Shown: in pieces, positions 3,110 through 38,786 of the stretch
Layout: each line of letters opens with the position of its first letter
Position numbering within the stretch: position 1 is the first letter of the stretch
NCBI GenBank assembly: GCA_965277715.1
Contig: OZ255836.1
Coordinates: forward strand, 3,488,001-3,552,000
Source: Gammaproteobacteria bacterium
GTDB taxonomy: Bacteria; Pseudomonadota; Gammaproteobacteria; JBCCGL01
Reading direction: 5' to 3'
Length of the DNA: 64,000 nt
Notes under the pieces: generated by a model
What the model saw: the letters and a program-made list of their open reading frames with translations, nothing else
What the model was told of the DNA's origin: nothing
Databases searched by the model: none
Made by a program: the position numbers and the translations under genes

Positions 3110-4201
3110 ATGAAAATCACAACACTTAAAACCACCCTGGTCGATGTGCCATTGGCAAACCCTATCGCGACAGCTATACACGCTATGCGCAGCGTGGGCT
3201 GTGTGCTGGTGGAACTGGAGACAGACGAGGGGATTACCGGTGAGAGCTATGTTTTTACATTGAATGGTGCCCGGCTGTCTGCGTTGCACGAAATGGTACT
3301 TGGCTTTACACACCAGGTTGAAGGGCGCGATCCGCATTTTGTCGCGCAGATTGGCCAGGCGATGTGGGATGAAATGAACCCGATCGGTCACGCAGGTTTT
3401 TCCATCGCTGCGCTGTCGGCCATTGATACCGCCTGCTGGGACATTATAGGCAAAGCAGCTAATCAGCCGTTGCACAAGCTCTTTGGCGCCTGCCGCGATA
3501 AAGTCAAAACTTACGCCAGTGGTGGCTTGTGGTTGTCGCAGTCGATCGACGACTGTGTGCGCCAGGCGGGTGAGTTTATTGATGCCGGTTTTCGCTCGAT
3601 GAAAATACGCCTCGGCAGCGCAAACAGTGCCGATGATGTCGAGCGTGTCCGGGCGATTCGCGCCGCATGTGGCCCCGATATTGAGTTATTGACCGATGCC
3701 AATCAGGGTTTATCCACCAAGCGGGCGATTGGCTTGGCACGCCAACTGGAGGCGTTTGATATAGCCTGGTTGGAGGAGCCGGTTGTCTACCAAAATCTCA
3801 GTGGTCATGCCGAGGTACGCCGGGCGACGAATATCCCTATCGCCAGTGGTGAAACAGAGTACACCTATTTAGGTATGCACAAAATGTTGGAGGCGGGCGC
3901 GGCGGATGTAGTGATGCCAGACTTGCAACGCGTGGGTGGGTTGACCGGGTTGCGGCGCGCTGCCACGCTCGCGGCGGCGTATCACGTGCCGGTTTCGACA
4001 CATGTTTTTACCGAGCAAAGTATTTGTGTGGCGGCGTCAGAACCAAATTATATTTCGGTTGAGCATATGCCGTGGTTTTGTACGTTATTCAATGAACCGC
4101 TGGAGGTGGATGAGGGTTTTTTACGCGTGCCTGATCGCCCTGGCATTGGGTTTACATTCGATCAACGGGCGGTTAAGAAATTCAAGCTAACTCAGCTATA
4201 A
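3110..4201 (+). CDS. Mandelate racemase/muconate lactonizing enzyme family protein (enolase superfamily)
   Basis: SAIDTACWDI, KxR, DANQG, WLEEP, SGETE, PDL..GG and STH motifs. Confidence 0.9.
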   Translation: MKITTLKTTLVDVPLANPIATAIHAMRSVGCVLVELETDEGITGESYVFTLNGARLSALHEMVLGFTHQVEGRDPHFVAQIGQAMWDEMNPIGHAGFSIAALSAIDTACWDIIGKAANQPLHKLFGACRDKVKTYASGGLWLSQSIDDCVRQAGEFIDAGFRSMKIRLGSANSADDVERVRAIRAACGPDIELLTDANQGLSTKRAIGLARQLEAFDIAWLEEPVVYQNLSGHAEVRRATNIPIASGETEYTYLGMHKMLEAGAADVVMPDLQRVGGLTGLRRAATLAAAYHVPVSTHVFTEQSICVAASEPNYISVEHMPWFCTLFNEPLEVDEGFLRVPDRPGIGFTFDQRAVKKFKLTQL

Positions 4202-4250
4202 GGTAAATTAATACATTTACGAATCCTGGTGTTTATTTCGTGCACGTTTC
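4190..4250 (-). mobile_element. Partial copy of MITE family A
   Basis: Reverse complement matches the first ~60 bp of the 20046 and 38556 elements; supplies the TAA stop of the upstream gene. Confidence 0.7.
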
Positions 4251-4254
4251 TGAT

Positions 4255-4576: not shown

Positions 4577-5101
4577 CTAAGCTACCTTGGTTGTCGCTGT
4601 TGTAAATTCAAGGTTTTTCAGGGTTTTTGCGCAGGCGATAGCCGCCTCGACACCTTTGATTTTGAAGTGCTCGAAAAAGAAATTCTCATGGATTGGGGTT
4701 TCCTGAAAATGGTGGGGCGTCAATACCACGGACAATATCGGTATTTCAAGTTTAAGCTGCACTTTCATCATGGCATCCAGTACGGTGCTGGCGACAAGAT
4801 CGTGCCGGTAAATACCGCCATCGACGATAAGGCCGGCCGCTACGATAATCGCATATTGCCCGGTTTTGGCCAGCAGTTTGGATTGCAGAGGAATTTCCAG
4901 GCTGCCAGGCACAACAAAGAAATCTATTTGGGTTTCGGTGATGCCCAAATTTTTACATTCGCCGATAAAAGATAAGCGCGCCTGGTCGACGATCTCACTG
5001 TGCCAGTCGGCCTGAATAAAGGCGATGCGCTTGCCGCTTTCCAGCAGGCGAAAGCCTTCGTAGTTTTTGACGTTGATACGCGTGGTAATGGTCTGATCCA
5101 T
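4577..5101 (-). CDS. ribH: 6,7-dimethyl-8-ribityllumazine synthase (RibH2-like)
   Basis: QADWHSEIV, VPGSLEIP and DGGIYRHD motifs; ATG 5101 preceded by an AGAGG RBS. Confidence 0.92.
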   Translation of the reverse strand: MDQTITTRINVKNYEGFRLLESGKRIAFIQADWHSEIVDQARLSFIGECKNLGITETQIDFFVVPGSLEIPLQSKLLAKTGQYAIIVAAGLIVDGGIYRHDLVASTVLDAMMKVQLKLEIPILSVVLTPHHFQETPIHENFFFEHFKIKGVEAAIACAKTLKNLEFTTATTKVA

Positions 5102-5232
5102 GTAACACCTCTTTGCTCGATACAGAGGGCATCGGAAACGTTGTGAACGCAGTAGTTTTCGACACCCTTTACAGGGATCAGGGCGACGGGAGCGCACTAT
5201 TGCAGCCAGGCTGAAACAGGTATTTACTGCCC

Positions 5233-5394
<162 letters not shown>

Positions 5395-5576
5395 TGGTTA
5401 ATTACTATTGGATAGCAAGTAACCCGGGTAGAGTATAAATCGTAATACGCCGTTTGGTAATACTGTTATTTATTATTTTACCGTTTAATTTGAAAAGCAC
5501 TGGAATGGCGCCAAACTTGTGCTATAGCAAGTGGTGGCAAATGGTTGGTGCAGACGATTTAAGGTGAGTTAAGCCC

Positions 5577-6367: not shown

Positions 6368-6700
6368 ATGACGCTTGATGTAACCAAAACTGCGGGCCTG
6401 CTACAACAGATGGGCAATAGTACCCGGCTTGAAATCGTGCGGTTGTTGGTGCGCGCTGGGCCAGCGGGTATGCCCGTCGGGGATATTCAAACACACCTGG
6501 CGATCCCTGCGTCGACCTTATCACACCACATCGCCAAGCTGTGTGGTGTGGGTCTGGTGAGACAATCGCGTGAGTCAACAACGCTTTATTGTTGCGTTGA
6601 CTACAGTGTGATCGATGGGCTCATTGCCTTTCTCTCAGATGAGTGTTGTATAGGGAATACCATCAATGCCAGTAGGGCATCGGAAAGTGTTGCCAGTTAG
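6368..6700 (+). CDS. ArsR/SmtB-family regulator
   Basis: RLEIVRLLVRAGPAGM, IPASTLSHH and C-terminal ECC. Confidence 0.9.
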   Translation: MTLDVTKTAGLLQQMGNSTRLEIVRLLVRAGPAGMPVGDIQTHLAIPASTLSHHIAKLCGVGLVRQSRESTTLYCCVDYSVIDGLIAFLSDECCIGNTINASRASESVAS

Positions 6701-9367: not shown

Positions 9368-10125
9368 TTTCGTTATTACAACTCGATGGAGCACTGCTAC
9401 TGACCGTGCTTTCTATTATGTTGTTTGCCGGTTTAGTGCACGGCACACTGGGCCTGGGTTTTCCAATGGTTGCAACGCCCATGCTGGCGGTTTTCTTTGA
9501 TGTGCGTGTGGCAATATTGCTGACATTGTTACCTACAGTGGCGGTGAACCTCGCCAGTATTTACGCTGCAGCCAACGCCGCCGCCACAATACGCCCGTTC
9601 TCGCCACTCGCTGGGTTTGTGCTGCTGGGTTCGCTGGCCGGAGCTTATATTCTCGCCAACACTGACCCCGAACCTTTTCGATTGGTTTTGGCCGGGTTAA
9701 TACTGTTATATATGCTAAGCCATTTTTTTGCGCGCATTCCCCGTGAGTGGCTACAGCTAAATAAGCTGTTAGCGATGGCCGTATTTGGCGTATTGGCCGG
9801 TTTATCTGCGGGCACGACAAATGTAATGGTGGCGGTGTTGATTATCTATTTTTTATCACTGGAAACGCCACGCAGTGAAATGGTGCCCGTACTCAATACG
9901 TGTTTTTTAATTGGAAAAATATCGCAAATCGCGGTACTTGCCCTGGCGGGTTTCGTCAGTTTTAGTTTGCTCTATGAAACAGCCCCGCTGGCTATTGCTG
10001 CGATTATTGCCCTACTGTTTGGCCAGCGTATTCGTGAAAAAATTGCTATCGATACATATAAAAAAATATTACAGGGATTGCTGGTGTTATTAGCGGGTAT
10101 TTTAGTTGTGCAGTTTTATTGGTAA
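9364..10125 (+). CDS. TauE/SafE-family membrane transporter
   Basis: AGLVHGTLGLGFPMVATP; ~250 aa hydrophobic protein. Confidence 0.85.
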   Translation: MISLLQLDGALLLTVLSIMLFAGLVHGTLGLGFPMVATPMLAVFFDVRVAILLTLLPTVAVNLASIYAAANAAATIRPFSPLAGFVLLGSLAGAYILANTDPEPFRLVLAGLILLYMLSHFFARIPREWLQLNKLLAMAVFGVLAGLSAGTTNVMVAVLIIYFLSLETPRSEMVPVLNTCFLIGKISQIAVLALAGFVSFSLLYETAPLAIAAIIALLFGQRIREKIAIDTYKKILQGLLVLLAGILVVQFYW

Positions 10126-10131
10126 TAAACC

Positions 10132-10241
10132 TAGACCCCATGTATTAACTTGCACACAAGTCAATACATAGGGTCTGCTGCATCAGCCAATAATTGCTCC
10201 AGAAAAAAGCGTTCTGGAACAATTAATTGCAAGTGAATACA
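10132..10241. repeat. Nested-palindrome element, family B
   Basis: TAGACCCCATGTATTAACTTG...CAAGTCAATACATAGGGTCT plus TAATTGCTCCAGAA...TTCTGGAACAATTA, between convergent genes. Confidence 0.8.
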
Positions 10242-10271
10242 GGTCGGGAACCTGTCGGATTCAGGACTGCC

Positions 10272-10898
10272 CTACTGCCAAAAACCCGACAACATATCAG
10301 CATCAGGATTCCCCCCGGCAACGAGTGCCTCTCTAACACCCAGCCGATCCTGCTGGGGTTTGTTTTGGTTGGCTTTCCACTTGCCACACAGTGTCGTTAC
10401 CGCCATTTCTAGCCCGACGATGGCGGAAAGTTGTTTTTCTATAAACGCCTCCGGTGCATCAGATACCGCCCAGGGTTTTTCCTGGCTGGATTCCTGATCG
10501 TTGGTGAGTTTTTCCAAAAAGCGGTGTTTCCAGTGGGCATCGTCAATAAACTTCAGCGTACCGCTGGCATGAACAACAGCGTAATTCCAGGTAGGCACGA
10601 CCTTGCCATGCACCTGCTTTGAGGGATACCAACCGGGTGAAACATACGTATCCGGCCCCTGAAATATAGCCAGCGCCCCGCCGGTTACACGTGCTTTCCA
10701 CAAGGGATTGGCCAAGGCTATATGGCCTTGCAGCAGCCATGCATTTTCCTGCTGTGGGTTTTCGCATAGTCGCAGCGGGATGTGATTGGCAGACAACCCG
10801 GATTCTGTATTGACCACCAGCGTAGCCAACGGGTACGCCTTGATCAAACCGTGAAGAACGTGAGGGTCAGACTGCTCAAAGTGTTTTGGTATATACAT
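10272..10898 (-). CDS. paiB: FMN-binding negative transcriptional regulator (PaiB family)
   Basis: MYIPKHF, GHIALANP.W, FQGP..YVSP.WY and VPTWNYAVVH motifs. Confidence 0.92.
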   Translation of the reverse strand: MYIPKHFEQSDPHVLHGLIKAYPLATLVVNTESGLSANHIPLRLCENPQQENAWLLQGHIALANPLWKARVTGGALAIFQGPDTYVSPGWYPSKQVHGKVVPTWNYAVVHASGTLKFIDDAHWKHRFLEKLTNDQESSQEKPWAVSDAPEAFIEKQLSAIVGLEMAVTTLCGKWKANQNKPQQDRLGVREALVAGGNPDADMLSGFWQ

Positions 10899-11165
10899 AT
10901 CAATTGATCTATTAATTTAAGGCATCAGCAGGAATACATCAGAGGCACAACCTCATACTGCCAGCAATTATAACCAGGCCACCCTCCACGGAACAGTTGG
11001 TGTGCATTTATCTTGATTAGCCGGGCATTCTCACGGCCTGTGCTGCACTTATCTGCGGCCCTAAAGAAGTCCAGATTAGCCAAGGTGATATACGAATCTG
11101 GTTAGATATCATTGTGCAGCGCGCATAGAAAGTGTCGATTTACGTCTGTATCGTTAGCAAGGTAG

Positions 11166-11336
11166 GCCGGTTGGTCTGCCCAGAAAAAACGCTTGCCCCA
11201 TATCCATATGAGAGGTTTATTCACTGAAAATATGGTGAGGATGGGTATCGATCATGGTGTATTGTGCGATACACCGCAAGAAAGTGTATTTTTCAGCTAT
11301 AGTCTAAGCAAGGCAATAACAATACTCTTGTTTTGA
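11166..11336 (+). pseudogene. cas6f: Remnant 3' end of cas6f (csy4)
   Basis: Open frame after TAG 11163 reads KRLPHIHMRGLFTENMVRMGIDHGVLCDTPQESVFFSYSLSKAITILLF*. It aligns by eye, without gaps, to the recalled Csy4 C-terminus (LPF..LRS.STGQ.FRLFI.HG........F..YGLSK...VPWF*) and sits directly before the leader. Confidence 0.65.
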
Positions 11337-11466
11337 CCTTCTTTTTTCACGCTCTTTAACAATTCAATAAAATCAATAAGTTACAGATACACTGAATTTC
11401 ATTGGTATTTTTTGTTATTTGAAGTTAAGTATTTGTTGTGACTTGTTTTTTTTGCTTTATACTCGC
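11337..11466 (+). promoter_or_regulatory. Type I-F CRISPR leader with IHF-like site
   Basis: AT-rich 130 bp; AATCAATAAGTTA at 11371-11383 fits the IHF consensus WATCARNNNNTTR. Confidence 0.8.
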
Positions 11467-14400
11467 GTTCACTGCCGCACAGGCAGCTTAGAAAAGACTT
11501 CCCCCGCCCCTGTTCACCCTCCAAGAGTTCACTGCCGCACAGGCAGCTTAGAAAGTAATAATTAAATCGGGCGTCAATATCATTGCGTTCACTGCCGCAC
11601 AGGCAGCTTAGAAATCAGCGATATGTTTATCTGCTTTATCTGCCAAGTTCACTGCCGCACAGGCAGCTTAGAAAGTCTGATGATAATTTATCTCAAGTGC
11701 TTGCTGGTTCACTGCCGCACAGGCAGCTTAGAAAGTCACTGCCGTTGGCTCGCAGCGTGGTACCATGTTCACTGCCGCACAGGCAGCTTAGAAAAGACAT
11801 ACTCTGCCAATCTTCATTATCTTTCTGTTCACTGCCGCACAGGCAGCTTAGAAATGAACTGCAAGCGATGTATCCATGCCATTTAAGTTCACTGCCGCAC
11901 AGGCAGCTTAGAAAATTTATTATATAGACTCTTCCATACGATATTCGTTCACTGCCGCACAGGCAGCTTAGAAATGATATTGCCCTGGCCAGCGCGCTGT
12001 CTCACAGTTCACTGCCGCACAGGCAGCTTAGAAAAAAGTGGGGGCACTGCCCCCAGTAACACTCGATGTTCACTGCCGCACAGGCAGCTTAGAAAAACAA
12101 ACGGAATCAGGAAAAACGGCTGATTTTTGTTCACTGCCGCACAGGCAGCTTAGAAAGTATTCGATAACGAGTGGGTCGATGGTATTGAGTTCACTGCCGC
12201 ACAGGCAGCTTAGAAATTGAGTATCTGGCAAAGGGTAACAAAATGAAGGTTCACTGCCGCACAGGCAGCTTAGAAATCTCAGTGCGGGTATTACCTGAGT
12301 GTATTTTGTGTTCACTGCCGCACAGGCAGCTTAGAAATTCTCTAGCCATCTTCCATCCATTCCATATAAGTTCACTGCCGCACAGGCAGCTTAGAAACTC
12401 TGTATGAGAAAAAACAACGTGATGAATCAGTTCACTGCCGCACAGGCAGCTTAGAAACGCAGGGTTTCGTGTCACGGCGTATACGCAAACGTTCACTGCC
12501 GCACAGGCAGCTTAGAAATATATCACCGAGTTGGGCGTAGAGCATGGTGAGTTCACTGCCGCACAGGCAGCTTAGAAATGTAGAAATGGCAACAGCGGGC
12601 GTTGCTCGGGGTTCACTGCCGCACAGGCAGCTTAGAAAGCTTTACACGGTGTGGGTCTACTCGAAGGTGAGTTCACTGCCGCACAGGCAGCTTAGAAATA
12701 GAGGTAATTATTAATTATGTCTCATATAACGTTCACTGCCGCACAGGCAGCTTAGAAAACAGGTATCCGTTTACGCTCAGAACGCCACCCGTTCACTGCC
12801 GCACAGGCAGCTTAGAAAGTTGAGTGGGTTTTTTTCGATTAAATCGTCGTGTTCACTGCCGCACAGGCAGCTTAGAAATTTGTATTATGAAGATGGAAGC
12901 TTTGAAGCGGGTTCACTGCCGCACAGGCAGCTTAGAAAGTTCACTCAACAGCAGATAGATATATTCTTGAGTTCACTGCCGCACAGGCAGCTTAGAAATT
13001 AAATCCACATCATCTAGATTAAAATCATCAGTTCACTGCCGCACAGGCAGCTTAGAAAGCTGGCTAAGCACGATGATATTGTAGACACATGTTCACTGCC
13101 GCACAGGCAGCTTAGAAAAGTGAATCTATTACATTCACTGCCAACTGTTTGTTCACTGCCGCACAGGCAGCTTAGAAAGGATACACCCCCTAGACACCCA
13201 AATTGTCGATGTTCACTGCCGCACAGGCAGCTTAGAAAATACGGCTTTACGCCGCAAACTGAACGATTACGTTCACTGCCGCACAGGCAGCTTAGAAACT
13301 GAAATCACATTGACGGCATCTGAAAATTAAGGTTCACTGCCGCACAGGCAGCTTAGAAAGCTCATACCTTAAATTTTCTCAGTTATGTATTGTTCACTGC
13401 CGCACAGGCAGCTTAGAAACTACGTTTATGTCATTGGCATTGGCCCCTGGGGTTCACTGCCGCACAGGCAGCTTAGAAATTGATTTTGTCAATCTAACCA
13501 TATCTTCCAAGGTTCACTGCCGCACAGGCAGCTTAGAAACGAACCTTGCCCATTTTCAACCGCCATTTCCTTGTTCACTGCCGCACAGGCAGCTTAGAAA
13601 GTTGTAAATCGGAACGAACTCATCACACAAATGTTCACTGCCGCACAGGCAGCTTAGAAACTCAGATTAAAGCTATGATTTGGGGGTAAATAGTTCACTG
13701 CCGCACAGGCAGCTTAGAAAATCGATAATACGACTCAAGTATTACAATTAACGTTCACTGCCGCACAGGCAGCTTAGAAAGTTTTGTCTGCTTTGCCGAT
13801 TAACTGAGACAAGTTCACTGCCGCACAGGCAGCTTAGAAACTACTGGCCTGGATCAAACAAGTTATTTTTGCGTTCACTGCCGCACAGGCAGCTTAGAAA
13901 GTATGTTTTATCTTTTTTGTTGGCCTCGCAATGTTCACTGCCGCACAGGCAGCTTAGAAAATACACGCCCCCTCGCATCACGATACCACACGGTTCACTG
14001 CCGCACAGGCAGCTTAGAAAATTAAATCTTGTGCCACCGCTGGGTTTCTTTTGTTCACTGCCGCACAGGCAGCTTAGAAACATAATCGAAGCGAACTTTG
14101 TAGTGAATGTACGTTCACTGCCGCACAGGCAGCTTAGAAAGTTTCGGCGGATAAGGACGTATTTGTCGAGAGGTTCACTGCCGCACAGGCAGCTTAGAAA
14201 TTTTAACAATCTTTTTTGTTCAACAGATTGCAGTTCACTGCCGCACAGGCAGCTTAGAAATGGTAAAAAAGGAATGAAAGCGCTAAAGGGCAGTTCACTG
14301 CCGCACAGGCAGCTTAGAAAGTTACTTATTAAATAACTCGCATATCTTTTTTGTTCACTGCCGCACAGGCAGCTTAGAAAATTAACTTTAAATATGTCAT

Positions 14401-17400
14401 CTTCTGTCATTTGTTCACTGCCGCACAGGCAGCTTAGAAATTCGAGAGCCTTGACCACGCCGCTGAATCTCTGTTCACTGCCGCACAGGCAGCTTAGAAA
14501 GATAATTTAGTCTCTCAAGTCGATGATTTTTTGTTCACTGCCGCACAGGCAGCTTAGAAAAAATTGCCCACGCCTACCCCGGCGGACGCGACGTTCACTG
14601 CCGCACAGGCAGCTTAGAAAGTAAAAAATCTTTGCATCTAGTTCATCAAAAAGTTCACTGCCGCACAGGCAGCTTAGAAAAATTTTTTCAAATAAAGCCG
14701 ACGGATTTTACAGTTCACTGCCGCACAGGCAGCTTAGAAAACATCGATCTAATAGATGTGGCACCGCTTAGTGTTCACTGCCGCACAGGCAGCTTAGAAA
14801 AGACTAGCGGCCACTTACCCCCGGGCAACTTTGTTCACTGCCGCACAGGCAGCTTAGAAAATTTGCTTAATTTTAAACATAACAACTCTCTAGTTCACTG
14901 CCGCACAGGCAGCTTAGAAATTTTGGGAAAAGACGTTTCAAAATATTGATAAGTTCACTGCCGCACAGGCAGCTTAGAAAGGTGTAATCACCGAAATTAT
15001 CATTGAATACCGGTTCACTGCCGCACAGGCAGCTTAGAAATTATATCTATTTCATCCATCAAATATTGAAGCGTTCACTGCCGCACAGGCAGCTTAGAAA
15101 ACATCCTGATACATTTCCCTGCAATCCTGATTGTTCACTGCCGCACAGGCAGCTTAGAAACATCGTCTGATAGATTTATTTCAATAGAAATAGTTCACTG
15201 CCGCACAGGCAGCTTAGAAACTGATCATCTGGAACCCCGGTGTTGATTGAAGGTTCACTGCCGCACAGGCAGCTTAGAAATGCATAGTGTCGTGCGTATC
15301 TCTAGTTCGTCCGTTCACTGCCGCACAGGCAGCTTAGAAAGTACTGTTGCCAACGCCCTTGTGTTAATTCATGTTCACTGCCGCACAGGCAGCTTAGAAA
15401 CGTTAAAGCGCTTGATGAATTAAAAGCCGCGTTGTTCACTGCCGCACAGGCAGCTTAGAAATAGGGGCGGGCGGCAATATGTACAATTCAGCTGTTCACT
15501 GCCGCACAGGCAGCTTAGAAACGGCAGAGGTGCAGGAGCGCGTTCCTCGCTTAGTTCACTGCCGCACAGGCAGCTTAGAAATTGTTCTCGATATTTGATA
15601 ACAACTTCGTTAAGTTCACTGCCGCACAGGCAGCTTAGAAAAGCCTGTACCCCCGCACTCGTGACATTTCACAGTTCACTGCCGCACAGGCAGCTTAGAA
15701 ATTATGATAAATCATCTCGAACTTCTATTGTAAGTTCACTGCCGCACAGGCAGCTTAGAAAGTTAAATAACGGAAGCAGGGGCACTAAACCGCGTTCACT
15801 GCCGCACAGGCAGCTTAGAAAAATAAATCCAAGCGATAATGTAGCCTTGTCTGGTTCACTGCCGCACAGGCAGCTTAGAAATTCTAATTGATATAATGAA
15901 CTTTTGCCGTATTGTTCACTGCCGCACAGGCAGCTTAGAAATTCTGCGTTTTCAAGTTCATCTGTCATTTGTAGTTCACTGCCGCACAGGCAGCTTAGAA
16001 ATGAAAATTCACGTGAACGTTTTATTGGAAATTGTTCACTGCCGCACAGGCAGCTTAGAAAAGAGGTTCCACGCGGTAAGTCGCTTATTTCGTGTTCACT
16101 GCCGCACAGGCAGCTTAGAAATGTGATATAAAGTGATCATTGAGCTGTTTCGTTGTTCACTGCCGCACAGGCAGCTTAGAAATTTTTGACCTGCTAGATC
16201 TTTTGCGATTTTGAGTTCACTGCCGCACAGGCAGCTTAGAAAATTCGATATACACTCTAATTTAATGAATGCTCGTTCACTGCCGCACAGGCAGCTTAGA
16301 AACGTTCATTCCACTGGTGGGATGGCGATGCCGCGTTCACTGCCGCACAGGCAGCTTAGAAATTATATGATGGCACCATGAATACGGGCAATGTGTTCAC
16401 TGCCGCACAGGCAGCTTAGAAATGATTCAAGATGAGGGATTTAATTCATATATTGTTCACTGCCGCACAGGCAGCTTAGAAATTCTGTTTGTTTATCCAC
16501 AAAAACTAGTGCATGTTCACTGCCGCACAGGCAGCTTAGAAAGCTTATGTCTTTATTCTGATCGAACTCCTTGAGTTCACTGCCGCACAGGCAGCTTAGA
16601 AATGACCTTGCCTGCAATACGGGCAATTAACATCGTTCACTGCCGCACAGGCAGCTTAGAAAAGTTATCCAAAGCAGTAAAGCGCTGAACTCATGTTCAC
16701 TGCCGCACAGGCAGCTTAGAAATGTAAATAAAAAGTGATCGGCTGTCGCCGCTTGTTCACTGCCGCACAGGCAGCTTAGAAATTTTGTATTGTTTTAACG
16801 CCCCACCACTGATTGTTCACTGCCGCACAGGCAGCTTAGAAAATTCTCGTCAAAAATATTAACGCCTTCTCTTTGTTCACTGCCGCACAGGCAGCTTAGA
16901 AACGTTGCTGAATACAGCAACGGGGTACCTCAACGTTCACTGCCGCACAGGCAGCTTAGAAAGTTCCATCACCCACGCACGGCAGTATTCATCTGTTCAC
17001 TGCCGCACAGGCAGCTTAGAAAAAATAAATTAGGTAGCGGAAGAAAGTTAGATAGTTCACTGCCGCACAGGCAGCTTAGAAACTGATCGTCAATGTCTAA
17101 AATTGGTTTAAGCGGTTCACTGCCGCACAGGCAGCTTAGAAATAAAATCCCTCACTTAAACTCTCCCCACCACAGTTCACTGCCGCACAGGCAGCTTAGA
17201 AATACTGTGTCAAGCCACGAAAAAACACCGGTCGGTTCACTGCCGCACAGGCAGCTTAGAAAAAAAATCTAAACCCAGATGCTATCCATATCATGTTCAC
17301 TGCCGCACAGGCAGCTTAGAAAGTTCTTGACGTTACTATTAATACAAACATATTGTTCACTGCCGCACAGGCAGCTTAGAAAGTTTATTACTAATGTATC

Positions 17401-20026
17401 AACATCAATGGAGAGTTCACTGCCGCACAGGCAGCTTAGAAATGATGCACTGCACGTAATGCTTCTGTTCTTGCGTTCACTGCCGCACAGGCAGCTTAGA
17501 AAAACAGGAACAGGAAAATCTATTGTCATTGCATCGTTCACTGCCGCACAGGCAGCTTAGAAAAGTAACTACTATTGCACCCGGCGCAGCTACCCGTTCA
17601 CTGCCGCACAGGCAGCTTAGAAAGTTAAATCGCTTCCATCTTGCGTGTTGGGTTTGTTCACTGCCGCACAGGCAGCTTAGAAATTTTACCCGACTCATAA
17701 TGAATACACCCCTCTGTTCACTGCCGCACAGGCAGCTTAGAAAACCAAAATCATTTAAAAATTGTTAACCCCACAGTTCACTGCCGCACAGGCAGCTTAG
17801 AAAATATCATAATCCCAGACCCATTCCTTCTAGCGGTTCACTGCCGCACAGGCAGCTTAGAAAGTACTCGAATCGTGACGTAGGCCCGCCTAAAAGTTCA
17901 CTGCCGCACAGGCAGCTTAGAAAGTTTCCCGCTGTTTGCTCAACATTCATCTCCGGTTCACTGCCGCACAGGCAGCTTAGAAATTTCTGCAAAAACTTCC
18001 AGGTCTTCTTTTACAGTTCACTGCCGCACAGGCAGCTTAGAAATTTTGCTGTTTCTTTGTATTCAACATTACCTCGTTCACTGCCGCACAGGCAGCTTAG
18101 AAATGAAAAATCCGGCACATGTTGAAGCAGATGAAGTTCACTGCCGCACAGGCAGCTTAGAAAGTTTGGCACGATGGAGTTGACGGAGGTTGGTAGTTCA
18201 CTGCCGCACAGGCAGCTTAGAAAGCTTAGCTTTAACACCACGAGAGACCACTATGGTTCACTGCCGCACAGGCAGCTTAGAAATTATCCCAAATCGCAAT
18301 ATTATGATAATAAACGTTCACTGCCGCACAGGCAGCTTAGAAAACTTAACACCTCGATTGCATTTATAATTAGCAGTTCACTGCCGCACAGGCAGCTTAG
18401 AAATAGTCTACGTGCATATAAATTTTATCGTCTATGTTCACTGCCGCACAGGCAGCTTAGAAAGTTAAATTCCGTTCTAAATATCATCGATGTTAGTTCA
18501 CTGCCGCACAGGCAGCTTAGAAAAAATTGCCTTGGTCACTCGCCAACGCTTTGGAGTTCACTGCCGCACAGGCAGCTTAGAAATTTTTTTGTTATATGTC
18601 TAACCGCTTCTAATAGTTCACTGCCGCACAGGCAGCTTAGAAAGGATTGGACGGTTGGAATGAAGGCCGGGTTGTGTTCACTGCCGCACAGGCAGCTTAG
18701 AAATGATTATTATCCCGCTTCATTACCAACCTCCGTGTTCACTGCCGCACAGGCAGCTTAGAAAACTGTTGTGTAACGGGCTTAATGAAGAGTGGCGTTC
18801 ACTGTCGCACAGGCAGCTTAGAAATTTATTGATATAGCAATCCTGCTGCATTTGATGTTCACTGCCGCACAGGCAGCTTAGAAATCTGCGCTAGGCATTT
18901 TTAAATTAATTCGTGAGTTCACTGCCGCACAGGCAGCTTAGAAAAGAATATACGGGTAATCAAACCGACAACCGTTCACTGCCGCACAGGCAGCTTAGAA
19001 ATCCCCATGAGCCGCGTATTCAAAAGCGACCATGTTCACTGCCGCACAGGCAGCTTAGAAAACATTTTGTCGAGCCGGTGCAGATTTTATTGCCGTTCAC
19101 TGCCGCACAGGCAGCTTAGAAATCTAGCGGCTATTGGTACGCCGCACATTCCCACGTTCACTGCCGCACAGGCAGCTTAGAAACGGTTCGCAAAGCCAAA
19201 CACTCAATCTCGAATGTTCACTGCCGCACAGGCAGCTTAGAAATGCAAAAAAGCCGGTGCAACTATTAGAATGCAGTTCACTGCCGCACAGGCAGCTTAG
19301 AAATCATCAGCCCGCACCCACTTGTCCCCATTCCTGTTCACTGCCGCACAGGCAGCTTAGAAACTCGAATAATAAATTTATTAATAGTGCTATCGGTTCA
19401 CTGCCGCACAGGCAGCTTAGAAATTGTGATGAGTTTGGGTGCCACCGTTTTGGACTGTTCACTGCCGCACAGGCAGCTTAGAAAATTCGTCGCCCATCGC
19501 AGTAATTGCAGTAGAAATGTTCACTGCCGCACAGGCAGCTTAGAAAATAACGACGGCTGAAACGTTTAATTTATCAAAGTTCACTGCCGCACAGGCAGCT
19601 TAGAAAACTTGGTTCGGGGCCGATTTTCGGCCAATAGAGTTCACTGCCGCACAGGCAGCTTAGAAAGGGACAAAATATTTTGTTGATGACCTGGAACGGT
19701 TCACTGCCGCACAGGCAGCTTAGAAAGTTAGCCCTTTTGGGAACTTATACCCGGGCTTGTTCACTGCCGCACAGGCAGCTTAGAAATGTAGAATCAAACA
19801 CCGCCATGTGTACCGCTAGTTCACTGCCGCACAGGCAGCTTAGAAAATTTAAAGCAGTGTATCAAACTGCAAATGACTGTTCACTGCCGCACAGGCAGCT
19901 TAGAAAGTACAGCTCCGTCACGCGTCTTTGTAGCGTGTGTTCACTGCCGCACAGGCAGCTTAGAAAGTCTGGAGTGATTAAGTGGTCTGACGCTAACTGT
20001 TCACTGCCGCACAGGCAGCTTAGAAA
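11467..20026 (+). CRISPR. Type I-F CRISPR array, 143 repeats and 142 spacers
   Basis: 28-bp repeat GTTCACTGCCGCACAGGCAGCTTAGAAA. Spacer lengths from repeat offsets: 127 x 32 nt, 13 x 33, 1 x 29, 1 x 34. One variant repeat seen (C>T at 18805). Confidence 0.99.
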
Positions 20027-20045
20027 ACTGTAAATTAGTGAATTA

Positions 20046-20181
20046 GGAACGTGCACGAAACAAATTCCGGGGTTTGCAAATGTATCGATTTACCTTATAG
20101 CTGAGTTGGCTGAGTGTTATTAACAAATAGCGCATTATCTAAATAACATGATAAAAGTGGACATTATTTTGTGTACGTTCC
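20046..20181 (+). mobile_element. MITE family A (IS5-like ends)
   Basis: Imperfect TIR GGAACGTGCACGAAA...TTTTGTGTACGTTCC; nearly identical to 38556-38684. Confidence 0.8.
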
Positions 20182-20580
20182 ATAACGTCCTACGCTGCCC
20201 ACATAGAATAAAGAGTAGACGTTAGCTTACCTTTTATTAATCTTTGTATTTATTCGTGGTGCTGTAGGGGTTTCGTTCGCGAGGCGTAAGTGTCTTTCTC
20301 CACTGTATACAGCGCGAAGCTGTGGTGAGCGTTGGGGAAAAGTCAATGCAAGAACATTGGCAGGTAAGATACACGAGAGACGAGTAAACCCGAATACGTG
20401 TTGACGTGTCGAAACCAAATTGACAAGACATCAGAACCAGGGGCGGGAGGTAGAACTGGGATAAGTCTGTGCGTGAATGCCGAATGCGGCGCAGGCGGTG
20501 TCTGGCATACAGTGTACGTGACTGTGTATCAGGCTTTTTATGGGAACTGTGGGAACCAGTCGTTGTGATGCAAAGAACGC

Positions 20581-20721
20581 CTAATTATCATCCTCCAATA
20601 TCCGCTGAGCCGGTCCCTCCAAATCATCAAACTGGCCACTTTGCACAGCCCAAAAAAACACCCCCACAATAAGACCTGCGAGCAACATTGCTATCGGAAT
20701 CAACAGAAAGAGAATATCCAT
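20581..20721 (-). CDS. ccoS: cbb3 oxidase assembly protein CcoS
   Basis: MDILFLLIPIA..FFWAVQSGQFDDLEGPAQRIL. Confidence 0.93.
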   Translation of the reverse strand: MDILFLLIPIAMLLAGLIVGVFFWAVQSGQFDDLEGPAQRILEDDN

Positions 20722-20728
20722 CCCGCTG

Positions 20729-23050
20729 CTAGCCGCCCCCTCGCGCTCGTCGCAAACGCGAGGCATTTAACACAACCACCAAAGAACTTATCGACATACC
20801 GATAGCCGCCATCCACGGCGTGGTGTAACCCAAGGCGGCAAGCGGTAACGCGGTAGCATTATAGGCAATCGCCCAGACAACATTCTGTCGCACAATGGTC
20901 AGCGCCCGCTGCGCAGTGTGCAACCCGATGGCGAAGGCCGGAAGGTGATTGTTGAGCAACACCAGATCGGCGTTGGTCACTGCAATATCAGTACCCTCTG
21001 CCATCGCCACCGACACATCGGCGCGTGCCATCGCCGGGGAGTCGTTGTCGCCGTCTCCGAGCATCGCGACAACCGCGCCCGTGTCTTGCAGGCGGTGGAT
21101 GTGATCGAGCTTGTCGGCTGGGCTAAGCCGGTAGTGAAATGTGCTGATACCCGCCTGGTTGGCTATGCGCGACACGGCCATCTGGCTGTCTCCAGAGAGT
21201 ATCGATACCGCCTTACCGGCACATTTGAGCTCATCGACCAGGCGTGCCGCCTCTGGGCAAAGCTGATCGACAAAGGAAAATGCTGCCACCAGCGTGCCGC
21301 CGCGCATCAGCAGTGATTGGGTGCCGCCAGTGGTTGCATCTTCAGACACCGACCTGAAAACATCGGCAGCCACATCCAGAGCGGTAACTTCGACCAGGTA
21401 GTCGAGTGAACCGAGGTGCCAACGCTGGCCCGCTATCGTCGCGGCCATGCCCACCCCCGGCGTGATGACCACGTCGCTCACGCGCAGAGTTTCATCACCG
21501 CTCGTGTGTGTGTGGAATTGGCACAGCGCCCGCGCCACTGGGTGTTGTGCGTGGTGGCCGATGGCGGCGGCGATACGCAGTGCGGTGTGTTGATCGAGGT
21601 CGGCGAGCACGCGTGTATTGCACAATTGCAACACGCCATCGCTGAGCGTGCCGGTCTTGTCGAATACCACGTGGGTGACACGCGCCAGCGTCTCCAGTGC
21701 GCCAGCGCGGGTGGGTAACAAGCCATTCCCGGCGAGTGCTGCACTGGCGGCGCTTATCGCCGCCGGTGCGGCCAGCGACAAAGCACAGGGACAGGTGATG
21801 ATCAATACGGCGACGGTGGTCGATAGCCAGTCGGCGTCACCGGCAAGCCACCAGTACGCGGCCACCAGGGCGGCGATGGCGATCACAGCGGCGATGAAGT
21901 AACCGGCGATACGGTCGGTAAACTGCAACAGGGGTGGTCTTTCGCTCTGCGCACGCGTCAGCAGGCGCTGCAACTGGCTGGCGAAGCTGTCGTCCAGCGA
22001 TTCGGCCACGCCGATCAGTAGCTCGCCCTCAAGGTTGATCGAGCCGCCGATAACGGTGGCGCCGACGCACCTGGCGACCGGGGCACTCTCGCCAGTCAGC
22101 AGTGACTCATCGACGCAGCCACTGCCCTCCAGTACATGACCGTCGACCGGCACTGCCTGCCCTGGCAACACCCGCACCCGGTCACCGGGGCGTAGTTCAA
22201 GCGCCGCTACCCGCTCGATAGTGCCGCTCACATCGACCCGCGACGCCATTTCCGGCAGCGCCCGCTGCCAGGCGGTAGCCGCACGTGTGGCGCGAATGCG
22301 CACCAGCAGTTCAACGTGCCGCGCAGTGAGCAGTAAAAAGGTGAACATTGCCACCGAGTCGAAATAGATTTCCCCCCGCCCCTGGTAGACGGCCCCTATG
22401 CTGGCGACGAAAGCGAGGGCAATGCCCAAACTGACGGGTGCGTCCATCGTCAGCCGCCCGGTTTTTGCACCGCGCCAGGCGGCGCGGAAAAACGGCCCGG
22501 CGCTATACGCCACCACTGGCAGGCACAGCAGCAGGCTGGCCCAGCGAATCAGCGCCGCGTAACGGGGATCGATGGCACCGTCCGCCAGATACAGGGCGAC
22601 CGCCAGCATCATCACTTGCATACCGAATACGCCCGCGACCGCCAGGCGTTTGAGCGAGTGGCGGTACTCGCTGTCGAGCTGCTCGCGCTGCCGATGCGGC
22701 GCGTAGGGGCTGGCGCTGTAACCCAGGGCATCGATGGCACCGATGATGTCTGCAAGCGCTGCCGAACCCGCCTGCCACACCACACGCGCCTGGCGGGTGG
22801 CGTAGTTTATCGACACTGACTCTACGCCCGCCTGGCGCTGTAAGTGACGCTCGATTGCGCCAATACAGGCGGCGCAGCGAATCCCCGCCACCGCCAGCGT
22901 CACCTCGCACCGCTCCTGCGGCAGGTGCCTGACGAAACGATCGCGCAGTGCCGGGCGGTCATAATCATCGGCCTGGCCCGGTCGGTTACCCGGTCGGCGG
23001 CCTGGCCGGTTAAAAATAGTCGCCGCGCCAACGGTGGTATCGAATGACAC
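20729..23050 (-). CDS. ccoI: Heavy-metal (Cu) P1B-ATPase CcoI
   Basis: CAAC HMA motif, TGES, CPC, DKTGT, GDG.ND and YN motifs; operon context. Confidence 0.93.
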   Translation of the reverse strand: MSFDTTVGAATIFNRPGRRPGNRPGQADDYDRPALRDRFVRHLPQERCEVTLAVAGIRCAACIGAIERHLQRQAGVESVSINYATRQARVVWQAGSAALADIIGAIDALGYSASPYAPHRQREQLDSEYRHSLKRLAVAGVFGMQVMMLAVALYLADGAIDPRYAALIRWASLLLCLPVVAYSAGPFFRAAWRGAKTGRLTMDAPVSLGIALAFVASIGAVYQGRGEIYFDSVAMFTFLLLTARHVELLVRIRATRAATAWQRALPEMASRVDVSGTIERVAALELRPGDRVRVLPGQAVPVDGHVLEGSGCVDESLLTGESAPVARCVGATVIGGSINLEGELLIGVAESLDDSFASQLQRLLTRAQSERPPLLQFTDRIAGYFIAAVIAIAALVAAYWWLAGDADWLSTTVAVLIITCPCALSLAAPAAISAASAALAGNGLLPTRAGALETLARVTHVVFDKTGTLSDGVLQLCNTRVLADLDQHTALRIAAAIGHHAQHPVARALCQFHTHTSGDETLRVSDVVITPGVGMAATIAGQRWHLGSLDYLVEVTALDVAADVFRSVSEDATTGGTQSLLMRGGTLVAAFSFVDQLCPEAARLVDELKCAGKAVSILSGDSQMAVSRIANQAGISTFHYRLSPADKLDHIHRLQDTGAVVAMLGDGDNDSPAMARADVSVAMAEGTDIAVTNADLVLLNNHLPAFAIGLHTAQRALTIVRQNVVWAIAYNATALPLAALGYTTPWMAAIGMSISSLVVVLNASRLRRARGGG

Positions 23051-30164: not shown

Positions 30165-30761
30165 ATGGAAGTTAAATTAAGCAAGCAACAAAAAGTCGCT
30201 ATTTATGGATCAAACGATGTTTATTTAATAATGCGCCAGATTTTGCGCAGAGAGAATAAAATCGGCCAGGGCCAGGAACACTTCTGGATGGTTGGCCTTA
30301 ATCCGATGCACAAAATTCTCTATATTGAACTGGCTGCTTTAGGCTCATCCAATATGGCGAATATCAAAGCCAGAGAAGCGTTTCGACTGGCGATTCACAA
30401 GTTGGCGTTTGAGGTAGTTTTGGTACATAACCACCCAAGTGGTCTGGCTGAACCTTCAGTGGCCGATAAAGATTTCACTGATTACTATATTCAGGCGGGT
30501 AGGTTTCTTAAAGTCGAGGTAGCTGACCATTTAATTCTTGGCGAAGACGATTATTTCAGCTTCGCAGATTCAGGGCTTCTTGATGAACTCAAACAAAGTA
30601 GAAAATATGAATTACCCGATATGATCGAGGCGAGAGCTGCGGCAAAAGCCAAGCAGGAGAAAACCGCTGAAATAGCAAAAGCATTAAAAGATAAGGAGAT
30701 GAGTGTGGATATCATTGCCGACGTTTTAGGGCTTTCAACTCAGGAAATTGAACAACTCTAA
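30165..30761 (+). CDS. RadC-like JAB domain protein with Rpn-type C-terminal tail
   Basis: QEHFW, HNHPSG..PS.AD and DH motifs; tail EIAKALKDKEMSVDIIADVLGLSTQEIEQL. Confidence 0.85.
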   Translation: MEVKLSKQQKVAIYGSNDVYLIMRQILRRENKIGQGQEHFWMVGLNPMHKILYIELAALGSSNMANIKAREAFRLAIHKLAFEVVLVHNHPSGLAEPSVADKDFTDYYIQAGRFLKVEVADHLILGEDDYFSFADSGLLDELKQSRKYELPDMIEARAAAKAKQEKTAEIAKALKDKEMSVDIIADVLGLSTQEIEQL

Positions 30762-30900
30762 GGAACATGCATGAAACAACTTCCGTTTTTATTATATTAT
30801 TTCAATAATGTGTCATTTTTTAATAGCACACTCACGTCGACTCAGCTATAAGGCAAATTAACACATTTATGAACCCCGGCGTTTATTTCATGCATATTCT
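30762..30900 (-). mobile_element. Diverged MITE family A copy
   Basis: GGAACATGCATGAAAC...TTTCATGCATATTCT ends, internal CTCAGCTATAAGG; preceded by CTAA. Confidence 0.7.
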
Positions 30901-30933
30901 TAACGTTTACTTTATTTCTATGCAGGTAGCGTA

Positions 30934-31145: not shown

Positions 31146-31406
31146 ATGCAAAAAGCACAGGTTTTTCTACGTGAAGATCAAAAAGTTCAATTGCGGTCAA
31201 TCGCCCGGTTTACTGGCAGAAAGCAAAGCGAGTTGATACGCCGTGGTGTTGATCTTGCTATTGAAGAAGCGCAAAAGGGGGAGGGTAGCTGGCAAAAAGG
31301 CTGGTCCCAGGCCTGCGGCATTTGGCGTGATCGGGATGACATTGACGTAATAATAAAAGAATATCGCGCTGATATGGATACCAGAATAGATCAACTGCAG
31401 AAATGA
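31146..31406 (+). CDS. CopG/RHH antitoxin
   Basis: MQKAQVFL..SELIRRGVD..CGIWRDRDD; overlaps the PIN toxin by ATGA. Confidence 0.8.
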   Translation: MQKAQVFLREDQKVQLRSIARFTGRKQSELIRRGVDLAIEEAQKGEGSWQKGWSQACGIWRDRDDIDVIIKEYRADMDTRIDQLQK

Positions 31407-31777
31407 CCCCTGTTCTGCTGGACACTTGTATCGTCATTGATTACCTGCGGCAAAAGGATGGCGCTATAGTGTATGTCCATAGTCTTAAATCTACTCCACG
31501 CCTTTCCAGCATGACAATAATGGAGCTCTATGCAGGCATTAAAGGAAACAAAGAAAAACGCATGATAGAATCAATTGCTGCGCACTCTATTGTGCTTGAT
31601 GTTACCCACCCTATTGCAGTTCAATCCGGTGAATACTTAAAACAATATCGCCCCAGCCACGGCATCGGCGCTGTTGATTCCGTTATCGCGGCAACGGCTC
31701 AATTTCACGAGATTGCCCTGGCTACACTTAACGTGAAACACTTTCCCATGTTCAAAAACCTGCAAAAACCGTATTGA
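31403..31777 (+). CDS. vapC: VapC PIN-domain toxin
   Basis: LLDTCIVIDYLR, ELYAG, D.VIAATA and TLNVKHFP. Confidence 0.9.
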   Translation: MTPVLLDTCIVIDYLRQKDGAIVYVHSLKSTPRLSSMTIMELYAGIKGNKEKRMIESIAAHSIVLDVTHPIAVQSGEYLKQYRPSHGIGAVDSVIAATAQFHEIALATLNVKHFPMFKNLQKPY

Positions 31778-34245: not shown

Positions 34246-34311
34246 ACCCTGTCCACGCAAACTAAAAATAAAATGTACAGGGCAAGAGCCCTGACAACGA
34301 GGACTCTAACC

Positions 34312-38384: not shown

Positions 38385-38555
38385 GAGAGCTTCCAGAGGC
38401 TCGAAACGACGGGTAGCCCGGCGGTTGAAACGCTGAGAGAGATACGCAAGAGCGAATCCAAGCGCTTAGCTGGATGAAAACCATCGTATTGGATTCCTGT
38501 GTAGCGGCTAAGACATTTATTGATGAACCGGATTCATCTGAGGCCGTGAAACTAA
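38385..38555 (+). pseudogene. Remnant toxin-antitoxin pair: antitoxin 3' end plus PIN toxin 5' end
   Basis: ..PAVETLREIRKSESKRLAG* overlaps ATG 38474 (MKTIVLDSCVAAKTFIDEPDSSEAVKL), which is cut by the MITE. Confidence 0.6.
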
Positions 38556-38684
38556 GGAACGTGCACGAAATAACTTCCGGGGTTTGCAAATGTATCGATT
38601 TACCTTATAGCTGAGTGTGTCATTAACGCATAGCGCATTATTTAAATAACATTGTAAAAGTGGACATTGTTTTGTGTACGTTCC
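38556..38684 (+). mobile_element. MITE family A
   Basis: CTAA|GGAACGTGCACGAAATAAC...GTTTTGTGTACGTTCC. Confidence 0.8.
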
Positions 38685-38710
38685 ATATACCATTAGTTTT
38701 TATGAAAAAA

Positions 38711-38786
38711 TGGAGCTGGCGACAGGAGTCGAACCCGCGACCTGCTGATTACAAATCAGCTGCTCTACCAACTGAGCTACGCCAGC
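38711..38786 (-). tRNA. tRNA-Thr(UGU)
   Basis: GCTGGCGTAGCTCAGTTGGTAGAGCAGCTGATTTGTAATCAGCAGGTCGCGGGTTCGACTCCTGTCGCCAGCTCCA. Confidence 0.98.

Follow-up and report, generated by a model that had tools for sequence, protein, structure and literature searches.

Remote type I-F CRISPR arrays

In Yersinia pestis, the type I-F arrays YPb and YPc have a repeat identical or nearly identical to that of the array presented here and are located far from the single cas locus. They are short arrays of a well-studied genome whose cas operon is known, and differ in these respects from the present one. On a broader scale, the available excerpts of a survey of CRISPRs state that distant arrays account for ~23% of CRISPRs, that 75% of them have a counterpart of the same subtype among the cas clusters of their genome, and that the mean number of repeats is 13 in distant arrays and 8 in orphans (Bernheim et al., 2020, PMC7145637). 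Distant arrays are proposed there to originate from the loss of one of two similar cas loci, with the compatible array being kept (PMC7145637). A functional example is found in the accessible part of a study on Pseudomonas aeruginosa ATCC 10145, where the isolated I-F array CRISPR3 lies 1.3 Mb from the cas operon and supports interference and primed adaptation in trans (bioRxiv 2026, PMC13142298). As far as these excerpts go, distant I-F arrays working in trans are already well documented (PMC7145637, PMC13142298), and the present array is notable mainly for its size. The description of this locus as an unusual split system, given in an earlier note, was thus overstated.

Anatomy of the array and its leader

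The stretch of DNA analysed here (the window, 64 kb) shows 11.4 kb upstream and 44 kb downstream of the array, which is flanked by a paiB-like gene on one side and by cbb3-oxidase maturation genes on the other. The features of the locus are:

11166..11336, + strand: 3' remnant of cas6f (csy4), a decayed open frame of 56 codons (Pfam Cas_Csy4 and a profile of our own)
11337..11466, + strand: CRISPR leader, 130 nt, AT-rich, with the cas6f stop codon immediately before it, an arrangement shared with intact I-F loci
11467..20026, + strand: type I-F CRISPR array, 143 repeats of 28 nt and 142 spacers (repeat search, Rfam)
18797..18824, + strand: the sole variant repeat, no. 123, C to T at repeat position 9 (45.9 bits, 50.1 for the others)
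20027..20044, + strand: stub of 16-18 nt after the perfect last repeat, adjoining a dispersed element of ~140 nt

The repeat (GTTCACTGCCGCACAGGCAGCTTAGAAA) occurs in 143 copies, which run from 11467-11494 (first) to 19999-20026 (last), and a search of both strands with up to 5 mismatches yielded no further copy elsewhere in the window. All copies but one are identical (142/143), amounting to a single changed base among 4004, and all 143 pass the gathering score of the Rfam family CRISPR-DR4 (RF01317). Variant repeat 123 sits in the older, trailer-side portion of the array. Most spacers have a length of 32 nt (127 of 142), the remainder measuring 33 nt (13), 29 nt (1), and 34 nt (1). None is an exact duplicate of another, and the longest word common to two spacers comprises 13 nt. 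The counts of the earlier note (143 repeats, one variant base, no duplicated spacers) are thereby reproduced; the span it gave for the array, 11337-20026, ends correctly but includes the leader, the array proper starting at 11467.

With 40.8% GC, compared with 50.9% in the rest of the window, the spacers are of foreign composition, and none of the 142 targets the window. Protospacers, which would be expected to lie beside the I-F PAM (GG), were detected for them neither among 50,697 phage records nor among the 288 loci that were fetched, and none of the spacers matches the intact I-F loci L240 and L241 or 30 cas6f loci at E≤0.01, as spacers directed against cas genes would. The repeat itself is widespread: it is identical to the cas6f-adjacent repeat of three fetched loci (L247, L248, and L257), differs by 1-3 mismatches from that of 13 further cas6f-bearing loci, and 17 viral contigs carry solitary copies or mini-arrays of exactly this repeat.

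In the leader, an IHF-like site (AATCAATAAGTTA, 11371-11383), which fits the IHF consensus, belongs to a block that 22 other I-F leaders have in common. Of 34 positions shared by at least 70% of these 22 leaders, 29 are retained, in agreement with the intact leader described earlier. A candidate promoter, by consensus match only (TTGTGA-16-TATACT), is located at 11436-11463. The leader shows 71-73% identity over 141-153 nt to Acinetobacter and Legionella plasmid leaders and 83% identity over 64 nt to one Vibrio leader. Moreover, relative to the cas6f stop codon, the leader keeps the register found in intact I-F loci. Two such loci, L240 and L241, have leader and array immediately downstream of cas6f, an architecture that the window reproduces. 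With a repeat family bearing a hairpin recognised by Cas6f, unique spacers of ~32 nt and foreign composition, and a leader directly after cas6f, the array is a genuine type I-F CRISPR on the chromosome of an uncultured sponge-associated gammaproteobacterium.

At its distal end, the array lacks a degenerate terminal repeat and its old end has therefore probably been cut off. At least one rearrangement of the array is evident from its perfect last repeat together with the truncated stub.

The cas6f remnant and the missing cas operon

With its residues 3-54 (11172-11327), the remnant corresponds to the last 51 positions of Cas6f. Pfam Cas_Csy4 matches over profile positions 130-178 of 181 with 20 bits (E 8e-4), short of the cut-off of 25, and a profile built from 29 Cas6f proteins recovers the remnant at positions 140-190 (18.1 bits, E 1e-5) as its only match among the six-frame pieces of 10100-11470. 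At the C-terminus, 27 of the 29 real proteins score at least 49 bits versus 18 for the remnant; the exceptions are L241 (38.9) and L263 (24.7), the frame of the latter stopping one base before its locus end. Identity of the remnant to real Cas6f C-termini does not exceed 29%, whereas the nearest-neighbour median among the real ones is 56%. Of the 11 positions that at least 80% of the 29 proteins conserve, five are retained and six are lost, among the losses a serine (29/29), a glycine (28/29), and a proline (28/29). A search for relatives of the remnant in a large protein set returned six candidates, none at E≤0.01.

Further pieces of cas6f were not detected by the 29-sequence profile between 10899 and 11165 in any frame. 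A stretch on the minus strand (11041-11133) resembled the Cas6f N-terminus (E 0.001 in a small database, E 0.03 by tblastn) but was rejected, as the profile gave E 16. The heavily eroded cas6f of the earlier note is accordingly real and decayed, although it consists only of a 3' stub (11166-11336).

Intact cas genes were found in the window neither by NCBIfam (32 ORFs) nor by Pfam (19 + 32 frames) nor by PADLOC (49 ORFs), and a tblastn comparison of the entire window with 11 Cas proteins from two complete I-F operons had no match below E 0.03. The absence of intact cas genes from the 64 kb, as claimed before, is thus upheld by four approaches, and the remnant is the only credible cas match: of cas1f, cas3f (cas2-3), csy1-3, and cas6f, nothing adjoins the array in the window except the decayed end of cas6f, comprising ~52 codons. 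No cas cluster lies within the 44 kb downstream or the 11.4 kb visible upstream, the distance that defines a distant array being 20 kb. A 'Csa3' reported by PADLOC at 6368-6700 is matched in its HTH only; NCBIfam assigns it to ArsR/SmtB, and it is regarded as an ArsR-type regulator, not a cas gene.

Little is added by related genomes. No close relative turned up in the contig collections searched: the best matches of the paiB-like protein reach 55-56% in genome and metagenome contigs, and those of the flanking P-type ATPase 51% in genome contigs. Cas_Csy4 occurs in none of the five genomes carrying the best P-type ATPase matches, which are too distant to be informative.

Variation among sponge-associated strains

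Four public sponge-associated runs from three studies were compared, one of which (X1) may be the source sample. The junction from paiB through remnant and leader to the first repeat is bridged by contigs in all four, so the cas-less state is real and common to strains that differ by ~1% in the flank; the misassembly that the earlier note had named as a possible refutation finds little footing here. The passage from the last repeat into the trailer (20000-20094) is bridged in two of the four (X1 and X4). Array stretches without contig cover in some runs (e.g. 15864-16217 in X7) were excluded as evidence.

The remnant and its surroundings vary at different rates. Conserved positions are changed at 5 of 34 in the leader versus 6 of 11 in the remnant (Fisher p 0.014). 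Between strains, the remnant differs at 16 of 499 run-sites (3.2%), compared with 13 of 1657 in paiB (0.78%; 7 synonymous and 3 non-synonymous sites; p 1.7e-4) and 3 of 389 in the leader (0.77%; p 0.017), where run-sites are not independent of each other; counted as distinct variable sites, the difference between leader (3/130) and remnant (10/171) is not significant (p 0.16). Divergence of the remnant is thus about four times that of the neighbouring gene. From the lost invariant residues and the divergence between strains, the scar left by the cas loss is judged to be old.

The runs also contain spacers absent from the window. Listed were 230 joints, in which foreign letters stand between two contig sides matching the repeat, together with 127 loose ends. 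In the 12 of these 230 joints that were inspected, the foreign stretch measures 8-33 letters, and 11 of the 12 range from 21 to 33, about the length of a spacer. All 12 stem from X4 and have depths of 913-1310, close to the flank depth of 1026-1081 in this run, which indicates that spacers absent from the window, with the repeat of the array, exist at approximately single-copy depth in a sample whose strain has the same scar. Spacer turnover is seen for spacers carrying the array's repeat in the same samples and not strictly for the array itself: possible sources of the additional spacers include a second array, minor strains, and a different organism with this widespread repeat, and differences in spacer content between strains could arise from loss alone. 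One X4 contig, in which 33 other letters link a repeat to a 95% copy of 20322-20449 of the window, hints at a second array with the same repeat. In X1, loose ends at 10933, 16505, and 20321/20322 represent structural variants around the locus, with unlike sequence preceding 10933.

Origin and function of the array

The explanation that appears reasonably probable involves an ancient loss of the local cas operon, after which the array remained in service, its Cas proteins being provided in trans by an I-F module located beyond the window. Leader and repeats are undecayed and strains with the same scar differ in spacers, hence the array is most likely used to this day. What we observe is the anatomy of the locus, its scar, a 64-kb window devoid of intact cas genes, a junction recurring in four runs, and decay of the remnant set against conservation of leader and repeats, while we infer every step that requires Cas proteins. 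The array was originally part of a canonical locus (cas1f-cas3f-csy1-3-cas6f-leader-array), whose operon has been deleted except for the final ~52 codons of cas6f; these decayed afterwards. Transcription would start from the leader promoter, Cas6f would cut within each repeat, and the resulting crRNAs would be loaded into the Csy complex, recruiting Cas2/3 to matching DNA. Cas1-Cas2/3 together with IHF would add spacers at the leader end. The Cas proteins may be supplied by a second I-F cas locus beyond the window, perhaps beside a second array with the same repeat. Spacer gain after the local loss of cas, as put forward in the earlier note, is partly sustained: the old scar, the intact leader and repeats, and the spacers of same-scar strains missing from the window favor continued use, but these spacers may lie elsewhere than at the leader end of this array.

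Less probable, though still to be reckoned with, is an orphan fossil in a genome devoid of I-F cas genes, i.e. an inert relic still awaiting decay, or an array whose trans module was lost recently. The window without any cas gene and the truncated distal end would agree with it, and orphans are no rarity: in the excerpts at hand they represent ~12% of CRISPRs (PMC7145637), and 148 orphaned I-F arrays are counted among 1,198 P. aeruginosa genomes (PMC13142298). Yet, right beside a decayed cas6f stub, decay has spared 4003 of the 4004 bases in the repeats and 29 of the 34 conserved positions in the leader, the array with its 143 repeats is far from the orphan average of 8 given in the accessible text of PMC7145637, and same-scar strains carry other spacers with its repeat. 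Degenerating repeats, a degenerating leader, and a short array, the traits of a fossil, were not found.

It is rather improbable that leader and array are younger than the scar, having been replaced by recombination from an active array of the same genome or another strain instead of growing in place. Isolated I-F arrays of P. aeruginosa appear, according to the part of the study available, to be laterally transferred, with leaders like those of cas-adjacent arrays (PMC13142298), and the dispersed element at the array end and the structural variants of X1 would suit such an event. The collinearity of cas6f stop codon and leader in the canonical register, however, fits one ancestral locus better, and an active I-F donor system would still be required somewhere.

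Slightly less credible again is the idea that a mobile element, either a plasmid or a phage-like element, circulates within the sponge microbiome and provides the machinery; memory on the chromosome would be permanent and still growing, and the machinery transient and shared. The 17 viral contigs with the exact repeat indicate that mobile elements interact with this repeat family.

A use of the crRNAs by a type III system or an I-F3 CRISPR-associated transposon (CAST), in place of a defence I-F module, is very unlikely. Precedents exist in the excerpts available, with a Marinomonas type III-B system using I-F crRNAs (PMC5576922) and CASTs co-opting defence arrays (PMC11300857), but the window shows no sign of a type III system or an I-F3 transposon, and neither adds spacers without Cas1-Cas2/3, while both still need Cas6f processing. 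An assembly artefact that parted array and operon is largely refuted, since, difficult as long repeat arrays are to assemble and despite the X1 loose end at 10933 with its unlike preceding sequence, both array ends are bridged (leader side in four of four runs, trailer side in X1 and X4) and the decayed stub is itself the scar of a deletion.

Comparison with known systems

The locus leaves the understanding of how I-F systems work unchanged. Its value lies in being a clean natural example of how a distant array can originate, the local operon being lost and the array kept. It carries an internal clock, with a decayed cas6f stub and an intact leader and repeats within a few hundred bases, and strains from several sponge samples available for comparison. 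If the trans module proves true, the locus will be a good system for addressing how much immune memory a symbiont keeps at a site free of machinery.

With the distant CRISPRs of Bernheim et al. (2020), as described in the excerpts available, the array shares typable repeats and the lack of a neighbouring cas cluster (PMC7145637). It differs in its 143 repeats, and the 20 kb free of cas genes are spanned downstream only, with 11.4 kb visible upstream (PMC7145637). Its 142 spacers place it far above typical cas-less arrays, for which the same excerpts give means of 8-13 repeats (PMC7145637). A close parallel is CRISPR3 of P. aeruginosa, likewise an I-F array with no cas genes nearby (here, within the window) and with a leader like that of the cas-adjacent array (PMC13142298). 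For CRISPR3, the accessible text reports a located cas operon and measured activity, whereas the cas module of the present array would lie outside the window (PMC13142298). Unlike CRISPR3 as portrayed there, the present array is much longer and adjoins a cas6f scar that marks the loss of an operon in place, not a translocation of the array (PMC13142298).

Anatomy of the array and its surroundings

The feature is a real and unusually large type I-F CRISPR array that lacks cas genes and carries a dated deletion scar. It is built from 143 copies of a 28-nt repeat, all of which exceed the gathering score of CRISPR-DR4 (RF01317) in Rfam and 142 of which are identical, so that 1/4004 repeat bases is changed.

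Features at and around the array
10272-10898, minus strand: paiB-like FMN-binding gene, upstream of the array
11166-11336: 56-codon frame resembling the Cas6f C-terminal end
11337-11466: leader
11467-20026: array of 143 repeats
18797-18824: variant repeat no. 123 (single C-to-T change)
20581-20766: ccoS, downstream of the array

The 142 spacers are mostly 32 nt long (127), the others measuring 33 nt (13), 29 nt (one) and 34 nt (one). No exact duplicates occur among them, the longest sequence common to two spacers is 13 nt, and they are poorer in GC (40.8%) than the window without the array (50.9%). Elsewhere in the window there is no further repeat copy on either strand, and no match to a spacer beyond 16 nt with a mismatch. 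The repeat number, the single variant base, the absence of exact spacer duplicates and the coordinates given in an earlier note are thereby confirmed, 11337-11466 being leader and the array proper starting at 11467. Protospacers for the 142 spacers were found neither in 50,697 phage records nor in 288 fetched loci, and 0/142 spacers match the fetched I-F cas genes.

Farther upstream than paiB lie transporter, NUDIX, ArsR and riboflavin genes. On the other side, ccoS is followed by a P-type ATPase gene, ccoG, ccoPQON and fnr, then by housekeeping genes and the fusA-tuf and ribosomal-protein operons. The claim that the 64 kb contain no intact cas gene is upheld by NCBIfam (32 ORFs), PADLOC (49 ORFs), Pfam (a further 32) and tblastn with 11 Cas proteins from two complete I-F operons, none of which detected a cas gene in the window. 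As the window shows only 11.4 kb upstream of the array, a cas operon may lie just outside it. The window also harbors an FMN riboswitch (106 bits; 5229-5397, minus strand) upstream of a lumazine-synthase gene (4577-5197), five tandem 42-nt (14-codon) units (34719-35009) within an OmpA/MotB-like gene (34273-35775), two PIN/VapC-type toxin genes (31403-31777, plus; 47294-47680, minus) and a RadC-like gene (30165-30761).

A remnant of cas6f adjoining the leader

In an intact I-F locus (L241) the gene order is cas1f-cas3f-csy1-csy2-csy3-cas6f, followed by leader and array; the I-Fv form (L240) has cas7fv-cas5fv in place of csy1-3. The 56-codon frame ends exactly at the leader start and matches positions 130-178 of 181 of Pfam Cas_Csy4 (20 bits, E 8e-4) and positions 140-190 of a custom profile (18.1 bits, E 1e-5) of 29 Cas6f proteins, 27 from a 399-genome sample (family present in 34/399) and two from plasmids. 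Since the Cas6f profile matches nowhere else in the frames of 10100-11470, the remaining operon was deleted, not scrambled.

Judged by its sequence, this remnant is decayed. Of 11 positions with at least 80% conservation across the 29 proteins it retains 5, and the losses include a Ser (29/29 proteins), a Gly (28/29) and a Pro (28/29). Its identity to real Cas6f C-termini is at most 29%, while the nearest neighbour of each real one is at least 39% identical (median 56%). Its score is 18 bits, compared with at least 49 bits in 27/29 real C-termini, the exceptions being L241 (38.9) and L263 (24.7), whose cas6f frame stops at the locus edge. A stop-free run of 56 codons is unremarkable (chance 0.065), and no relatives of the remnant were found in a large protein collection. 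The description of cas6f as heavily eroded was apt: 6/11 conserved positions are lost and only a 3' stub is left. One genome of the 399-genome sample contains, in addition to a full cas6f, a separate 67-codon frame (G110:C148:12248-12445) matching only Cas_Csy4 117-181 (47.9 bits), which may represent another 3' scar of this gene.

Evidence from public sequencing runs

The stretch is present in eight public runs from five studies, most labelled sponge metagenome and none of them RNA runs. Logan contigs from X1 (possibly the source), X3, X4 and X7, four runs of three studies, were aligned to 10200-20800. The passage from paiB through remnant and leader to the first repeat is bridged by contigs in 4/4 runs, that from the last repeat to the trailer in X1 and X4. 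The cas-less junction is therefore no assembly error and is common to strains ~1% apart in paiB; a misassembly splitting the array from its operon is ruled out for this junction. One X1 contig matches from 10933 on and carries at least 255 unlike letters before that point, an alternative sequence on the left side, shortly before the scar, that stems from a minor strain or from a second copy.

The remnant differs at 16/499 run-sites (3.2%), as against 13/1657 in paiB (0.78%; p 1.7e-4), where 7/10 variable sites are synonymous, and 3/389 in the leader (0.77%; p 0.017), run-sites not being independent. Counted as distinct variable sites, leader (3/130) and remnant (10/171) do not differ significantly (p 0.16). 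By this pattern the remnant evolves like unconstrained DNA, and the leader may be under constraint.

The contigs also show 230 joints with other letters between two repeat-matching sides and 127 loose ends, 24 of the latter listed. Among 12 joints listed, inserts measure 8-33 letters, 11/12 at 21-33 (about spacer length). All 12 stem from X4 at a depth of 913-1310, close to its flank depth (1026-1081), so a strain with the same scar has spacers with this repeat that are absent from the window, at about single copy. These cannot be placed in this array or its leader end, because contigs break at every repeat and only 12/230 joints are listed; their source could also be a second array, minor strains or another organism, the exact repeat being widespread. 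One X4 contig joins a repeat and 33 other letters to a 95% copy of 20322-20449, which hints at a second same-repeat array. In X1, X4 and X7 the read data break at 20321/20322, where unlike sequence adjoins on both sides, and X4 covers the segment 20322-20576 at ~3-fold depth; this segment is therefore multi-copy in the genome, though single-copy in the window.

The series closes with a perfect repeat, beyond which come a 16-18-nt stub and a dispersed intergenic element of ~140 nt; this element accounts for the loose ends of reads at 20106 and 20117. The array has probably lost its old end, where a degenerate repeat is usual. The element may be MITE- or REP-like.

Copies of the dispersed ~140-nt element (74-97% identity)
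20042-20184, plus strand: begins 16-18 nt past the last repeat
38555-38687, plus strand: 27 nt off the 3' end of the tRNA gene at 38714-38786 (minus strand)
30759-30903, minus strand
4185-4254, minus strand

The leader and the uniformity of the repeats

Compared with I-F leaders on plasmids, the leader shows 71-73% identity over 141-153 nt to those of Acinetobacter and Legionella, and 83% over 64 nt to a Vibrio one. Among 22 leaders, all from loci with cas6f, 34 positions are conserved in 70% or more; the present leader agrees at 29 of these and keeps the T-rich stretch preceding the first repeat and the block around AATCAATAAGTTA (11371-11383), which fits the IHF consensus; an intact leader with an IHF site had been noted, and these data agree. 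Conserved positions are changed at 5/34 in the leader vs 6/11 in the remnant (p 0.014). A promoter-like TTGTGA-16-TATACT (consensus match only) is located at 11436-11463.

The identical repeat also occurs in three loci with cas6f (L247, L248, L257), where the gap from cas6f to the first repeat is ~800-1300 nt vs 100-400 nt in other loci, and on 17 IMG/VR viral contigs (L272-L288): 10 with a single copy, 6 with mini-arrays (2-4 repeats) and L286 with 19. The latter appear to be solitary repeats or mini-arrays carried by viruses.

Repeats merely standing since decay of the remnant began would differ often; with 1/4004 changed bases they must have been renewed, selected or replaced. Renewal proceeds at the leader end, where each new repeat is copied.

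Interpretation and comparison with known systems

The most economical account, and a reasonably probable one, is use of the array in trans by I-F Cas proteins from elsewhere in the genome. The cas operon would have disappeared long ago from a complete I-F locus, and compatible Cas proteins made elsewhere would have kept the array useful; the array is probably still served in this way. A fossil or recently orphaned array is unlikely. Refreshment by recombination appears still less likely than an orphan. Co-option by another effector and misassembly, the latter contradicted at the cas-less junction, share what little likelihood is left.

The size of the array is not unique for I-F, since an A. 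lwoffii plasmid (L240, NZ_CP046295.1) carries an I-Fv locus (cas7fv, cas5fv) where the 9.5 kb after cas6f contain at least 159 repeat-like matches; very long I-F arrays thus also exist on plasmids. Bernheim et al. suggest that many distant arrays arose in this way, through operon loss with the array retained; they give 23% of CRISPRs as distant and 12% as orphan, mean repeat numbers of 13 (distant), 8 (orphan) and 24 (cas-adjacent), and a subtype match to a cas cluster in the same genome for 75% of distant arrays (PMC7145637). For I-F, a further study shows an isolated array of P. aeruginosa ATCC 10145 to be used in trans, adaptation included, and counts, across 1,198 genomes of this species, 281 isolated I-F arrays and 148 orphaned ones (PMC13142298). 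Cas-less I-F arrays used in trans are an already known kind, to which the present array probably adds a member.
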